Source: Octopus vulgaris
Taxonomy: Eukaryota
Length of the DNA stretch: 64,000 bases
Assembly (NCBI GenBank): GCA_951406725.2
Contig: OX597815.1
Coordinates: 1,054,001-1,118,000, forward strand
Direction of reading: 5' to 3'
The notes under the pieces were generated by a model, which made no database searches, was not told the DNA's origin, and saw only the letters and a program-made list of their open reading frames with translations. Positions 1-41,400 of the stretch are shown piece by piece; position 1 is the stretch's first letter; the number at the start of each line of letters is the position of its first letter. Both the position numbers and the translations under genes were made by a program.

Positions 1-762
1 CCGGCATCTCGTCAAGACAAACAAAAATGTTGTGAAAACGACCGTTAAATAAAGGGAAATTACTATGTGAATGACCGTTATATAAAGGAGAAAAAACTCG
101 AAGGCGAGAAAGTAAAAAACGCTCGTAGAATTTGAGTATGCGTGCATGCACACCCACATACATGTGCCTATATGCATATGCTCACTCACACACACATGAA
201 ACACATACATGTACTTTATCCATGTATATATAAGTTATGGAGGGTGAAGATTTATATAAGGTGAAGAGGACTTTTTAGCCTTGTCAAAAACAGGATGTCT
301 GTGGATGCCCTGGCTAAAGCACCCAATATATTATTTAAAGCTGTTAGAGTTAAGAAGGGCCTCCAAAAGTTAAATCTAGAAGTGCAACATAGTCCCTGAC
401 TTGTTTAGGAGGACAATAACTTTGCATATGGACTGATTTGTACTGTAAAGACTTGTTCAACCCATGCTAGCATGAAAAGTGGATGTCAAACGATAATGAC
501 AAGGGGATAATTACATACACTGACAACTGTTTTATGAAGAGAAAAAGAAAAAAACAAAGACCACAGCAGAGATCACATTTTGTTAAAGAATTAACCGAAA
601 CAGGTTCAAACACAAAAACTAAGTCTTGTGTTCAGAATGACAGGGTTTAGACATAACTGATACACTTGTACAGTGAGTCTCACAGACCCTTTGTAAGACC
701 CTTTCAACAATACATATTCCAAGTAAGATGCTTTGATGAATAATAATAATAGTAATAATAAA

Positions 763-1655
763 ACTAGAACAGCAAAGAACCATGATAAAACGATGGCAAG
801 AAAAGCCCCTTCATGGTAAATACTGGACTAAACTAAATGCAAAAGAAATAGACAAAGAAAAATCCCAGCAATGGTTGAGAAGCTCAGGACTCAAAGCAGA
901 GACAGAGGGATTTTTAATTGCAGCACAAGACCAAAGCCTCCCCACCAGAAATTACCAAAAACATGTAATGAAAAGAAATATTACAAGTAACTGCAGAATA
1001 TGTGGAGATGGACAAGAAACAATAAATCATATTATCTCTGGCTGCCCAGTCCTGGCTAAGAAGGAATATATTCACAGACATGACAGAGTTGGAACCTACA
1101 TACACTGGAAGCTATGCCAACATTATGGAATAACAACAGAAAAAAGATGGTATAGGCACACACCAGAAAAGGTCACAGAAAACGAGAAAGCAACCATACT
1201 CTGGGATATGCCAATACACACAGATAGAGAAATTAAGGCCAACAGACCAGATATAGTTGTCGGAGATTATGAAGAAAAAAAATGCTTTCTAATTGATGTA
1301 TCAATACCGGCAGATGACAATGTGTCTCTAAAAGAAATGGAGAAACTTTCAAAATACAAAGACCTGGAAATAGAGGTAACTAGAATGTGGAACCTGAAAA
1401 CAGAAACAATTCCTATCATAGTAGGCGCATTAGGCATGATAAAAAAATATTCTGAGAAATACATAACAAAAACACCAGGACTTACAAACACATATAACAT
1501 ACAGAAAATTGCACTACTAGGCACTGCACACATCCTACGCAGAACACTTTCCATACAATAACCATCAGAGCATCACAACAAATCACAGCACATATCCAAG
1601 GCACACAGAGCTGCGCTCGGTAGTGAAGTGAAAGCACGCTATAAAAATAAAACTA

Positions 1656-26154: not shown

Positions 26155-26535
26155 ACTTTACTTATTTCAGTCATTTGACTGTGGCCATGCTGGAGCACCG
26201 CCTTTAGTTGAGCAAGTCGACCCCAGGACTTATTCTTTGTAAGCCTAGTACTTATTCTATCGGTCTCTTTTGCCGAACTGCTAAGTTACAAGGACACTAA
26301 CACACCAGCATCGGTTGTCAAGCGATGTTGGGGGGAACAAACACACACATATATATATATATACATACATACAACGGGCTTCTTTCAGTTTCCGTCTACC
26401 AAACCCACTCACAAGGCTTTGGTCGGCCCAAGGCTATAGTAGAAGACACTTGCCCAAGGTGCCATGCAGTGGGACTGAACCCGGAACCATGTGGTTTGTA
26501 AGCAAGCTACTCACCACACAGCCATGCCTATGCCT
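26155..26535 (-). mobile_element. SINE family A, full length
   Basis: Reverse complement of 9735-10142. Confidence 0.92.
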
Positions 26536-26758
26536 ATACATATCTGCTTTCCATTCCCTCTTTTACACTTTTCCAAATTTTCAGTCTGTCATAGTGCACC
26601 TGAGCACTGTAGACAATAAACTCATTAGTATTATCATTACTATTATCATTACTATTATTATTATAGGTGGTGACCTGGCAGAATTGTTAGCATGATGGGC
26701 AAAATGCTTAGTGGCAGCATTTAAATTATCCCATTACATGATAACATGTTAACAATTA

Positions 26759-26997
26759 AGGTGGCGAGCTGGCAGAATCGTTAGCGCGCCGGGCGAAATG
26801 CTTAGCGGTATTTCGTCTGCCGTTACGTTCTGAGTTCAAATTCCGCCGAGGTCGACTTTGCCTTTCATCCTTTCGGGGTCGATAAATAAAGTACCAGTTA
26901 CACACTGGGGTCGATGTAATCGACTTAATCCCTTTGTCTGGCTTTGTTTGTCCCCTCTATGTTTAGCCCCTTGTGGGTAGTGAAAAAAAAAAAAAAA
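26759..26997 (+). mobile_element. SINE family B, full length, young-looking, A-tail
   Basis: Close match to the 6521 copy. Confidence 0.92.
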
Positions 26998-27708
26998 CAT
27001 GTACATTTTTCAATTCCATTCATTTATTGTATGGATGTAAATACAACAGTTTGGGGTTATAAAAGCATGGAGACGTCTTCACTCTAACAGACAGCCGACC
27101 TTCTTTTCTACTGTTCAATGTCATCAGTGATAAGATAATGACCACCACTAAAACTTCTTTGTACACAACTCACTAATCGTGCAGGGTTATCACATCCATC
27201 CCCAGGAACCATGTTGGCCCTCATGAAGGTAAACAGAAGTTACAGAATTTCCGTTTTGGTGATATTTGCTGCTGTTGTTAAGCAACAAGACGTTTAAGGG
27301 TGATTAGGTGATGGTGGAGGGCTTAGGGGCAGGAGACCCCAGACCTTGGAAAAAAAGAAAAAACTTTGGTCATCTTGTTGTAGTCGAGGGCTCTTCGTTG
27401 ACGCCCAACACCACTGGGAGGTGACCCAAGAAGTCACTGGAAATGGAAATCTCCAGGTCCAAATTCTTGGACGGCTGCTGCTGCAGCTGGGTATATAGTC
27501 CACTGAAGTGTTGTACATGAGCTGTTGTGATTTTAGAAATGTTTAAAAATATCACTAGAAAACACAGCTAAGGTACCTGAGGACACGGCATGGTTGGAGA
27601 GGGAGTGGTGGACCTGTTAATGAATTTATGGGAGTTTACTGGTTGTTACTTTCAGAACAATTTAATTTCACTGTTAAACTGCATCTTCCCTTTAAACCCT
27701 TATAAAAT

Positions 27709-28101
27709 TTACATTATTTACATTTGACGGATATTTGTCCTCATCTCATTTGTTGTTAACACGTTTCAGCTGATCTACCCTCCAGCCTTCATCAGGTGTC
27801 TTGGGGAAATCTCTCATTCCTAAGATATTTTTCGTTATTATTATTATTTATTATTATTATTATTATTCAGGTTACTGCCTGGAATTGAACTCAGAATCTT
27901 GGGGTTCGATTCCAGGCAGTGACCTGAATAATAATAATAATGAAAAATACCTTAGGAATAAGAACTCAGGTTTGCAATTTCCCCAAGACATCTGATGAAG
28001 GCTGGAGAGTATATCAGCCAAAACAACAAACAAGATGAGGACAAATATCTGTTAAATGTAAATAATGTAAATAATTCCTCATCTCTTAAATATAGAACTG
28101 T
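27709..28101. mobile_element. Palindromic non-autonomous element with B-boxes and hammerhead-like cores (Penelope/retrozyme-like), 10-bp TSD CTTATAAAAT
   Basis: Arms ~27707-27893 and ~27900-28072 are inverted copies; hammerhead-like core in each arm (GAAAC intact only in the left arm); TSD at 27699-27708 and 28102-28111. Confidence 0.75.
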
Positions 28102-28859
28102 CTTATAAAATATAATATTATTTTCTTGGTATACTTAGCATCGTAAATTCACAGGATGCATATGTGTGTGTGTGTGTGTGTGTGTGTGTTTACAAGCAAC
28201 AAGACTACCTGTACCCAGGTATTCTAATGTCTGCTCATTAGCTGTGCGAGGTCAGATTTGATGTAAATATCAACATTAAAGTTCTCTACACAACTTCCTC
28301 TTCCAACCTTGCCCACCTCCACTAAATACCAACAATAACATTGTATTCCACAACCTCTGGCAATGTTTATCTTCTGACGTAGGAGCACAGCCATTTTTTG
28401 CTGCTCAAATCAAAACAATTGCCCCCCACACACACATACTGTAATAGAGAAAGTTCACCACACCCTCGAGTGTTTCACCCAGTTTCTGCTGATAATTACA
28501 ATTTACCAAATGAAAGAAAGGCTAGAACATCCACAGAAATGCACACACACACACACACATAAATGTGCACATGTGCACACGCACACACACACACACACAC
28601 ACATACACACGCAGAGCTCACCTGGATTCTCTTTACAGCCACTCTTCACCCCACAGACTTTGACCTTAAAAATCGAGTGATGGGTCTGAAATTTCCTAAA
28701 GTGAAGAAAGGCTCTGTACACGGTCAATCCTACTCGTTAAAGAACTTATGCATTTGTGTCCCATCCCTAAAAGAACCATTCCCCATCAATAGATGCAAAC
28801 AAAGTCACAAGTATTACATCAGTTTCCTTCCTCCTTTACAGATGTCTAAACAAAGACCC

Positions 28860-29380
28860 TCATCATCATCATTGTTCGACCGTGGTCGAGACAATGGAAT
28901 ATACTATGTTACGCCAGACTTTGCGGTCCATCATGGCATTACGGAGGTCCTGTTGCTGGATGCCTGTATCCCTGGAGATTACATCAGGGTAGCAGAGTGT
29001 GCGCCCTCTGGTATCGCGAGCAGATGGCTTCCAGAGGAGAAGAGTAGAAATTACCTCTTTTTCAGCTCTACAACAATGTCCAGCAAACTGGACTCTCCTA
29101 CCTTTCACAAGAGATGACACAGGTGGTAATTTCCCATATATTTGTACTTTGGTTGGATGGCGCTTTCACGAGAGATTTTGAGCTCTCATAAGGAGGCGAG
29201 TGTAGGTTCCATCCAACCGCCTCTCAAGCTTCTTTGATAACGTCCAGGTTTCTGAGCCATAGAGTAGAATTGGTTCAACTGTGGCTTTGAAGATTTTAAG
29301 TTTGAAGTCTCTACTTAGATTTGATGACAAGATCTTATGCATGTCATTACAGGCTGACCAGGCCATACCCTTTCTAGTTA
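28860..29380 (-). mobile_element. RTE-group LINE 3' end (second family)
   Basis: ILLYGSETWTL..LDGTYTRLL..RRVQFAGHCCR..AMMDRKVWR; (TGA)n tail. Confidence 0.85.
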
Positions 29381-29599
29381 GACCAGGGATCTCTCACTCC
29401 CAGCTATTCAATATGGCTGTCGACTCTATGGAGTTTATCTACCCTTTGACAAGTTTTGGTTTTCATCCTGTACAGTGTCCAACAAAAACCACCTTCCTTA
29501 CCAAGAAGGTTTAGTTGAGTTGCTAGTTCAATGACCAATGGGTCAACCATGCAACTGGTTCTGCTGGGTTACATGTCATCAGTAACACTAAAAGTGACC

Positions 29600-38460: not shown

Positions 38461-41400
38461 TAAGGCGGTTAGGTGATGAAGTCCATCATCTCTCCGGCAG
38501 CGCCTGCAGTCCAGTCGTGGCTAGGATGTGTCATCCTGCGTCCCTCCTGGCTAAATCGGCTGGACCGAGAGGGGGATCCTGGGCTTGGGCATCCCAAGGC
38601 CTCCACAGTTCTTTTGCCCAAGATTCAGTGACTCCACCCCCTCTACTTCTTCTTCCAAGTCCTGTGGCGATGGGCGAGTGCTGACGGTGGCAGGTGTAGG
38701 ATGGCGCTGAGAGCTGCTAGCCATGGGCCTGCTCTCGGGTGGTTAGGGCAGGGTGGTCGTTCTGCAGCCTGCCGGGGCAAGGTCATAGTTCGGCAGCCAC
38801 TCTGACGTTGGAGCAGCCCTCTTCAGGGATAGCACTGCTCCCCCCTTAGGGGAAAGGGCCTAAAAAAGGTGACCGAAAGAAAGCTTGCCTCATCTCATCC
38901 TGTCAGCATACCGCAGCTGACTGGTGGTCTACCACGCGGTCGAAACATGAAAGAAATACGAAAGAAGAACCCAAAATCCTCCCGCCGGAAAAGCACTTTA
39001 TGTGTTGGATCCTGGAACATCAGGACACTCGTGAACAACCAAAACTGTGACAGACCAGAACGTCGAACAGCATTTGTAGGTCGTGAACTGAAGAGATACA
39101 GCATTGATGTTGCTGCCCTTAGCGAGACACGCCTTTCCGACACAGGGGAGATCACCGAGGCTGGAGCTGGATGCCCTTTCTTTTGGTCAGGGAAGGCAAC
39201 GGATGAACGCAGGGAAGTAGGAGTTGGCTTTGCCATTCGCACCGCCCTCGTCAAGAACCTGGAGTCCCTCACAAGAGGAATTAGCGACCGCCTGATGGTG
39301 ATGATAATTCCTCTCCAAGGCAAGATTCATGTGACACTCATCAGTGCTTACGCCCCCACCGTGACCTACACTCTGGAGCAGAGAGAGCTGTTCTATCAGA
39401 ACCCCACCAAAGTGCTACGGTCAGTTCCTAAAGACGACAAGCTGCTGATACTCGGGGATTTCAATGCCCATGTAGGCAGAGATGCCCAGTCTTGGCCAGA
39501 TGTCATCGGACATGAGAATACCAATGGTCAACTGCAACTCACCTTCTGCGCTGAACAGAGACTCACAATCACCAATACCTTGTATCAACTGCCTTACACA
39601 TCCACAAGGCTACCTGGATGCACCCAAGATCCAAGCATTGGCACCTGATTGACTATGTGATCACCAGGCGCCGTGACATCTAGGATATTCACACCACTAG
39701 GGCAATGAGGAAAGCTGACTGCTGGACAGATCACCTGCTGTTGAGGTGCAGACTGTCCTTTTTCCATCGTCAGCAGACACAGACGCCAGAAAGCTGATGT
39801 TAAAAAGAAACTGGACGTCCAGAAACTCAATGAACCAAAAACGGAAGGAACCCTCGTTGCCAACCTTGCGAACCAGTTTGAACATCTGCCAGGAGAGGGA
39901 AACCTTGAGAAGGCCTGGGCGAACTTCCGGGATGCAGTGTATGACTCTGCCAACCTTACCCTTGGCCACGCAAAACGGAAACACCAAGACTGGTTTGACA
40001 ACAACAAGGAGATCACCACCCTCCTCCAGGAGAAGAAAGAAGCATTCACAGCCTGGCTCAACGGCAAAGACTTCCAAGCCAAGCACGATCGCCTCCAGAA
40101 CATCAGAGGAATGGTACAGACTGAGCTGCGACAGATGAAAGACGAGTGGTGAGAAAACAAGGCTGCAGAACTACAGCAGTGTGCAGACGAGCACAACTCG
40201 AAGAAGTTCCTTGCCGGCCTGAAAGACGAGTATGGCCCCACGCTAAATGCAATGGCACCTGCGTGCTCTGCCGATGGAACCCTGCTTACTGAGAAGAGTG
40301 ACATCATACAGCGATGGAGTGAACACTTCAGTCAGGTACTACACAGACCTTCCCAGATAGACAAGCAGGCCATCCAAGACATTCCACAGCGCCCAGTCCT
40401 GGTGTTGCTTGATGACCCCCAAAACTGGCAGAAATCCAGAAGGCCATCAAGCAACTACATGTGGGGAAAGCACCTGGTCCTGACGGAATACCCCCAGAGA
40501 TCTTCAAAGAGGGAGGTGAAGCTGTTGCCATCGAGTTGACTGAGCTGATACAGCAGTTCTGGTACGAAGGGTCAGTGCCGCAGGACTTCAAGGATGCCAA
40601 CATCGTGCATCTGTACAAGAACAAGGGGATATAGTTTCATGTGACAACCACAGAGGCATCTCATTGCTGAGCATCGCAGGAAAGATCATGGCCCGTGTTT
40701 TTCTGAACCGCATCACACACCACCTGCTGGACGACGTGGTCTCAGAGAGCCAGTGTGGATTTAGAAACAACAGGGGGACAATAGACATGGTCTTTGCAGT
40801 ACGGCAGATACAAGATAAGTGCCGAGAACAAAACCAGAACCTCTTCATCCTCTTCGTGGACCTGACGAAGGCTTTTGACACTGCCAGCTGAGAGAGCCTG
40901 TTGGATATCTTGTCCAAGCTAGGCTGCCCACCAAAGCTCATGAGGATCATCCAGTCATTTCATGATGGCATGATGGCTCGCATGGTGGAAAACGGAGATG
41001 TCTCTGGTCCATTCCCGGACTCCAATGGCGTGAAGCAAGGACGCGTGAAGGCTCTCACACTCTTCAGCCTCATGTTTACCACCATGCTCTTCCGCGCCCT
41101 GTCAAAGTCTGATGCTGATGTCACTATTCGCTACAGATGTGACGGCCGATTCTTTGACCTCAGACGTCTGAAGGCAAAAACCAAAGTCTTGGACGCCCTA
41201 GTGAGAGACTTCCTGTTTGCAGACGATTGTGCGCTTGCGGCATTGAATGAACCAGACCTGAAAGAACTTGCCACTTGTCTCGCAGAAGCAGCAAAAGCCT
41301 TCGGACTGACCATTAGCCTGCGAAAAACTGAAGTGATGCTTCAGCCTGCACTTAGCCTAACACCTCCTGAGCCTCATATTGAGATTGAGGGCACAACTCC

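Follow-up and report, generated by a model that had tools for sequence, protein, structure and literature searches.

The inverted repeat at positions 27699 to 28111 of the window (the whole 64,000-nucleotide stretch of Octopus vulgaris DNA analyzed here) is almost certainly a damaged head-to-head pair of pseudo-long terminal repeats (pLTRs) from an abundant retrotransposon of the Penelope/Poseidon type. The pair is probably the product of a single insertion, and the window copy itself is likely an inert stub, debris of a known kind. What appears from the sequences to be new in this family is that its pLTR opens with a tRNA-like head carrying A and B boxes. The explanation that we consider best as a whole, and reasonably probable, joins a pair of pLTRs, insertion from two start sites, and an RNA that RNA polymerase III (Pol III) starts.

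Anatomy of the inverted pair in the window

The palindrome comprises four ungapped blocks of 37 to 51 nt with 90 to 92% complementarity within 27707-28072, and its inverted arms lie at 27707-27890 and 27904-28072 (Table 1). The palindrome, 10-bp duplication, B-box words, (AAT)n tracts, and two damaged hammerheads reported in the first-pass annotation were all confirmed, the tracts and hammerhead cores being present where it had placed them. Its two head-to-head arms of ~180 bp are real as inverted arms, but they are unequal, the right one having an extra tail of ~30 nt. In the numbering of the family majority described below, the arms are joined at nt 37 (left) and nt 53 (right); the left arm is truncated at its 5' end within the tRNA-like head and the right arm at the B box, so that the A box is gone from each. 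The B-box word given as GGTTCGATTCC is a genuine box, but its GG stems from the other arm across the 3-nt microhomology at the joint, and the family majority reads GAGTTCGATTCC at this place. The earlier finding that the left core lacks the GUH triplet was borne out by comparison with the family majority. The right core was said to have lost one G, and G12 is indeed gone, but the GUH triplet is missing too and stem I lacks its 3' strand. Neither of the two A boxes and neither of the two hammerhead cut sites remains in the window copy. In the left arm a deletion directly follows the ATG at the likely start of the open reading frame (ORF), and in the right arm this ATG is ATA (27958-27960). A search of window positions 26500-29500 against Rfam returned only miRNA-type hairpin matches, all under the cut-off.

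The presence of CTTATAAAAT on both sides of the pair, extending to 13 nt with one mismatch, supports the earlier proposal that the unit inserted in one event. The proposal that its transcript would be a long hairpin does not follow, because the boxes face outward from the center: a Pol III transcript would span one arm only, and a hairpin would need read-through from a host promoter.

Elsewhere in the window, a 273-amino-acid open frame at 740-1561 (+) resembles the C-terminal end of a restriction-like-endonuclease LINE and is followed by a (TAA)n tract, and a 271-amino-acid frame at 38833-39648 (+) resembles the AP endonuclease of an RTE-type LINE; both assignments are resemblances only.

Table 1. 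Features of the head-to-head pLTR pair, in window coordinates
Feature	Position	Strand	Remarks
Left target-site duplication, CTTATAAAAT	27699..27708	.	2-nt overlap with arm end
Left arm, pLTR nt 37-235	27707..27906	-	Tail-less; 84% to family majority
Left hammerhead core	27758..27800	-	GUH triplet deleted; C11.1 to U (versus family majority)
ATG at site of likely ORF start (family nt 110)	27815..27817	-	Putative start
(AAT)n tract, left arm	27835..27867	-	
B box, left arm, GAGTTCAATTCC	27881..27892	-	CpG-decayed
3-nt microhomology, head-to-head joint of arms	27904..27906	.	Gap -3
Right arm, pLTR nt 53-264	27904..28101	+	Tailed; 88% to family majority
B-box remnant, GTTCGATTCC	27904..27913	+	
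(AAT)n tract, right arm	27927..27941	+	
Right hammerhead core	27987..28024	+	G12 to A; GUH triplet lost, as is 3' strand of stem I
Penelope-type tail (~30 nt)	28073..28101	+	Right arm only
Right target-site duplication, CTTATAAAAT	28102..28111	.	

The pLTR family and its coding element

The genome-wide arm search proposed in the first-pass annotation returned 2,493 first-look candidates for the right arm in the 2.8-Gb genome, and the intact hammerhead core pattern matched 2,633 times versus 0 times for the reversed control, which argues against chance. The pLTR majority was derived from 27 right arms (30 loci, 3 of which were excluded as not anchoring in register). It is 265 nt long and comprises the tRNA-like head (nt 1-75), (AAT)n, the hammerhead (nt 139-184, with a GUU triplet at 177-179), an AC-rich stretch, and the tail. 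Stems I and II of the hammerhead fold in the majority, and GAAAC-GUU is intact and an A box present. The tRNA-derived boxes and the hammerhead recognized earlier are therefore genuine, and the alternative of a consensus lacking hammerhead conservation does not apply. The complete core is kept in only 3 of the 27 similarity-selected arms and the median arm identity to the majority is 92%, indicating an old burst. The whole element (30/30 bins) was covered by contigs from four sequencing runs that bear four species labels (A, C, D, and E), which shows its presence there. Rfam gave no tRNA or hammerhead match, and a better copy (L021) gave one chance match only.

As described by Cervera and De la Pena (2014, PMC4209133), the minimal hammerheads of metazoan Penelope-like elements (PLEs) share with the octopus hammerhead a type I core, an extra base before stem II, a 5-bp stem I, and a palindromic rudiment of stem III, and are expected to work as dimers. 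The same account describes many solo copies, and many pairs on opposite strands with 100-700 bp between them, that derive from truncated PLEs. The octopus family differs in its GUU triplet, and the available parts of that paper mention no tRNA-like promoter.

The link to a coding element came from the flanks of two loci (L013 and L054), which translate to a Penelope-type C-terminus; a genome search with such a C-terminus gave 4,980 candidates. The arm sequence followed the ORF stop in 35/35 distinct ORF-selected loci (the query's own included), normally after a spacer of 29 nt, so that the search for a PLE with the same pLTR, also suggested earlier, was successful. On the other side of the ORF, the arm ran straight into the ORF 5' end in 17 of 30 loci picked on ORF-start DNA (again including the query's own), the others being cut or inverted before the joint. 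Two loci carry the pLTR on both sides of the ORF, L138 and L341, the latter a partial tandem of ORF end, pLTR, ORF, and pLTR. The repeat unit thus reads tRNA-like head, (AAT)n, an 835-amino-acid reverse transcriptase (RT) frame, the 29-nt spacer, and the next head, 2,641 nt in all. In the majority sequence the ORF opens at arm nt 110 and crosses the hammerhead and tail, the arm encoding its first 52 codons, a conserved N-terminus; a relative at 55% identity retains the hammerhead-encoded peptide. At codon 269 of the ORF the individual copies have no stop.

The 835-codon frame contains the motifs DKG, YGL, SLD, MGS, YVDD, and CVYS..YKGET, with the RT motifs in order, and it has 2,735 relatives at an E value of 1e-30 or less. 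In one decayed copy, Pfam RVT_1 scored 27.7 bits (E value of 2.7e-6), just under the cut-off of 29.6. Pfam gave no GIY-YIG match for this family, and PF01541 was found in 3 of the 120 relatives listed from the 2,735. CVY..YKG with Cys/His residues stands at the place expected of a putative GIY-YIG endonuclease. By four of the five features tested (single RT ORF, flanking pLTRs, inverted copy with tail and target-site duplication, and pLTR hammerhead), the element classifies as being of the Penelope/Poseidon type; this putative clade call was made by eye, from the order of the domains and from a linker that lacks a zinc finger. The arm is thus the pLTR of a Penelope-type RT element, which supports the earlier suggestion of Penelope-type mobilization.

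In a search of the genome for sister Poseidon families, all 30 loci returned belonged to the same family, and a second PLE family and other ORFs were used as in-genome controls instead. This second family (L291-L310) is T-rich and apparently younger; a cysteine finger precedes its endonuclease, its open frames reach 806 amino acids, and none of its 20 loci had an A/B box pair. A 370-nt internal piece of the PLE with the tRNA-like head recurred with near-equal scores at several places on contig C31 (L358) and one on C7 (L359), and is likely carried within a larger duplicated unit.

Insertion shapes and probable two-strand priming

Palindromic and tandem arrangements were counted, as had been proposed, in a hammerhead-selected set consisting of the first 93 of the 2,633 core matches, all on contig C1, which merged into 87 loci. 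These comprised 52 head-to-head pairs, 33 single arms, 1 tail-to-tail pair, and 1 other arrangement, with a few pairs carrying one extra tandem piece. The 3' ends of the arms clustered in two groups, at nt 225-240 and 260-270. One tailed and one tail-less arm were found in 37/52 head-to-head pairs; of the remaining 15, which lack this pattern, 3 had neither arm tailed, 1 had both, and 11 had other ends. A duplication score of at least 8 was reached by 31/52 pairs compared with 10/260 shifted controls, leaving 21/52 with no clear duplication. In the similarity-selected set, 24/30 loci were head-to-head, 20 of these 24 were one-tailed, and duplications were present in 16/24 versus 2/120 controls. 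Among individual loci, L009 (1269-1712) has both arms tailed and an inversion running ~50 nt into the flanking DNA, and L057 (1433-1950) has two arms tail to tail.

Head-to-head pairs, a single tail, and duplications are the published Penelope signature. Pen2a of Adineta was described with an inverted pLTR, a 31-bp tail, and a 9-bp target-site duplication (PMC3846280), and a PLE tail of 30-40 bp on one end was reported by Craig et al. (2021). According to PMC11167929, the Poseidon protein of the green anole cuts and extends both strands. Its reverse transcription begins at two sites within the ORF start, the tail being equal to the distance between them, and hammerhead cutting is not required in vitro. 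These accounts of Poseidon_Ac and Pen2a_Av (PMC11167929 and PMC3846280) also give the closest overall likeness to the octopus element: a single ORF between pLTRs that codes for RT and, in the octopus element putatively, an endonuclease, a hammerhead overlapping the ORF start, an inverted 5'-truncated pLTR, a tail of ~30 nt on one end, a duplication of 8-10 bp, and a palindrome at the pLTR 5' end. The octopus pLTR differs from both, as they are described there, in its tRNA-like head with A and B boxes, in that most heads begin at it, and in a sense strand without runs of four or more T's.

Judging by how the copies inserted and by the results for anole Poseidon, we consider a two-primer origin of the pairs likely. 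The enzyme of the element would nick both DNA strands and copy the RNA twice from two neighboring start sites, each nicked strand priming one cDNA. With one strand extended from about nt 235 and the other from about nt 265, a tail-less and a tailed arm would result, the staggered nicks would give the duplication of 8 to 15 bp, and the two cDNA ends would join by microhomology, as at the 3 nt that link nt 37 and nt 53 in the window. An alternative for the pairing step is self-priming on an antisense template, as put forward by Arkhipova et al.

Of 151 arm starts, 25 fell at nt 71-90. In L040, L047, and L058 (at about 1430), the arms begin at nt 76-80 and lie immediately within (TAA)n tails belonging to other LINEs, so that joining or targeting may make use of the (AAT)n tract as a microhomology.

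The tRNA-like head and its possible use by polymerase III

The family majority head carries both boxes intact, an A box at 8 and a B box at 53 in tRNA numbering. Among 27 tRNA sequences of six isotypes from this genome, its best match was tRNA-Arg (z of ~8). The tRNA fold is lost in the head and the acceptor stem is broken; ARAGORN searches of 19 arm loci, the majority head (down to -ps70), and 46 relative loci yielded no tRNA. A tRNA-like stretch after the ORF was present in 0/34 related elements on metagenome contigs with enough downstream DNA (scores of 36-44 versus 64). In the literature searched, no description of a tRNA-headed pLTR was found; Repbase, Dfam, SINEBase, subscription papers, and the repeat library of PMC13282606 may list the family.

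Copies tend to begin at the head. Of the 151 arm starts, 46 lay between -10 and +10, 5 between -29 and -11, and 13 further upstream. A head-selected set consisted of 40 of the 2,862 matches in the genome, these 40 all lying on contig C1, with 5 loci already in other sets skipped. Among these 40 intact heads, 31 begin at most 7 nt upstream and 9 continue into the ORF-side spacer; the 31 comprise 11 with an adjoining inverted head, 11 with a partner cut further down, and 9 in unrelated DNA, so that 20/40 begin there with no inverted head alongside. Genome counts of 23-mers likewise gave 2,862 heads versus 868 spacers. Among ORF-bearing copies, L342 and L353 start at the head, and L138 and L341 reach upstream. 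The simplest reading of this pile-up of starts is run-off at the 5' end of the RNA. Since the starts lie 0-7 nt upstream and the acceptor stem is broken, a short leader would suit the data better than an RNase P-type cut.

A run of at least four T's is a Pol III stop signal as described in PMC3141230. The sense strand of the 2,641-nt majority unit contains 0 such runs, compared with 4.6 expected from base content and 2.9 under a synonymous shuffle (P of 0.03). The P value was 0.006 when Phe codons followed the other two-fold codons and ~0.06 when scaled to the relatives or to the codon use of this family, giving an overall range of 0.005-0.06 depending on the null. Runs of at least four G's are also absent from this strand (0 versus 1.1-3.3, the upper figure from base content). 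Ten long single copies, which are not independent, contained 16 T runs in 25.7 kb (0.6 per kb). The result is therefore modest, given P values of 0.03-0.06 under the stricter nulls, the missing G runs, and the nonindependence of the copies. For comparison, 27 T-poor relatives had 2.1 T runs per kb (101 versus 103 in shuffles), 1/64 relatives had none, and 40 other ORFs from loci of this genome had 190 versus 205.5 expected. The pLTR is T-poor (0.23), whereas most relatives are T-rich, and T runs occurred in the pLTR of 17/21 relatives and were lacking in 4/21. The closest metagenome relative (L361, 2908-4900; 48%) has no such run in 2 kb of ORF, a T-rich pLTR, and no tRNA-like head.

In RNA-seq data for organism B, a related label (three runs of one study), 7,747, 6,361, and 5,793 of ~12 million reads per run matched the element. 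Coverage of the arm was equal in both mate orientations, in libraries that may be unstranded, and arm depth was ~100 times that of the ORF start. No pile of starts or ends was seen on the arm, the cut site included, in these libraries, a type that loses short RNAs. This pattern fits passive transcription of many dead copies. In L138 (at 1408), every run had several hundred reads that pass from the arm into the same flank at a single point, pointing to one highly transcribed host RNA that contains a tail-less arm.

The starts at the head and the missing T runs fit Pol III transcription, and on this sequence evidence we lean slightly toward use of the tRNA-like head by Pol III. The element RNA would then begin a few bases before the head, where the polymerase would start, and copying from start sites near the RNA 5' end would yield many ORF-less 265-nt arms without a separate SINE. 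More tentatively, we suggest as a possibility that this is an autonomous coding retrotransposon that has captured a tRNA-type promoter and is transcribed over its full length (2.6-2.9 kb) by Pol III, with terminators purged from its whole sense strand, and whose own 5' end is copied as a SINE-like by-product, making it both a LINE-like master and a SINE.

The alternative that survives best accepts the same pair of pLTRs and regards the head as a passenger, in the form of an old retrocopy of a tRNA or SINE that was captured in the pLTR together with its (AAT)n tail, in an element read by Pol II, the stops being due to the palindrome, RNA structure, or a processing cut. The head with (AAT)n does look like such a retrocopy. 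A short palindrome spans the first base of the head and could cause stops or fold-back and so part of the pile-up; 11/40 heads have an adjoining inverted head, and Arkhipova et al. attribute inverted junctions to self-priming at such palindromes (PMC3846280). The Penelope promoter of Drosophila virilis is reported to be TATA-less and LINE-like (PMC2377424), and the T-run statistics are modest. Against this, the 20/40 heads that begin there with no inverted head, the spread of starts over 0-7 nt rather than at one base, the broken acceptor stem, the two boxes intact in the majority, and the T-poor pLTR compared with mostly T-rich relatives can be cited, and we consider a passenger head rather unlikely.

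An independent nonautonomous SINE or retrozyme borrowing the Penelope enzyme, as inferred in the first-pass annotation, is largely refuted and in our view very improbable. With 31/40 heads lacking the ORF-side spacer and heads outnumbering spacers by 2,862 to 868, the pLTR in effect spreads like a SINE; however, the head belongs to an ORF-bearing element in 35/35 loci and the arm holds the conserved first 52 codons of the ORF. No donor SINE with the same head was found among the 40 heads, six of which lack the normal body and have no other body in common. A tRNA-derived SINE was rejected because the unit, despite its A/B-box head, is the pLTR and first 52 codons of its supposed partner, and a non-LTR retrozyme because the 87 loci are mostly inverted pairs or single arms (52 and 33) rather than head-to-tail arrays. 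The claim of an undescribed independent system thus ended close to the outcome that its proponent had named as refuting it, a Penelope pLTR. A DNA MITE with long terminal inverted repeats, to which the short palindrome and thousands of copies with duplications might point, has practically no likelihood and was rejected for want of fixed symmetric termini and a duplication of fixed length: the ends differ by 30 nt (225-240 and 260-270), either arm can bear the tail, the center varies freely, duplications range from 8 to 15 bp, 33/87 loci consist of one arm only, and an RT ORF is linked to the arm.

For the Pol III-started RNA that we favor, the nearest parallel for the promoter appears to be the TRIMp3 elements Cassandra, Helenus, and Ajax, which according to Kojima (2024, PMC10886601) have a small-RNA-derived Pol III promoter in the terminal repeat. 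Those are noncoding LTR elements of 311-1,263 bp, in contrast to the 2.6-kb coding unit here; their promoters are proposed there to arise by SINE insertion, their autonomous partners are argued to need Pol II, and coding retrotransposons are taken to use Pol II. The PLE promoters characterized, as reported for D. virilis Penelope (PMC2377424) and Chlamys-3 (PMC8557442), are LINE-like or H3K4me3-marked with an intron. The schistosome SINE-like repeats SM-alpha and Sj-alpha also have a Pol III-type promoter followed by a hammerhead, but they are tandem and noncoding with no ORF link described in PMC6765202, whereas the octopus arms form inverted pairs with a tail and belong to an ORF. Non-LTR retrozymes share short type I hammerhead repeats related to pLTRs but are defined by head-to-tail arrays and circular RNAs (PMC7229834; 10.64898/2026.07.22.740005), unlike the mainly head-to-head or single copies of the pLTR itself found here.

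In vivo, the thousands of one-tail pairs mark the positions of both RT start sites and of the 5' end of the RNA, so that a Penelope insertion model with priming on two strands can be tested directly. Translation of an uncapped Pol III RNA would call for an unusual route. If the head is a working promoter, it would raise the question of how such an RNA comes to be translated, and would reveal a path leading from autonomous element to SINE.
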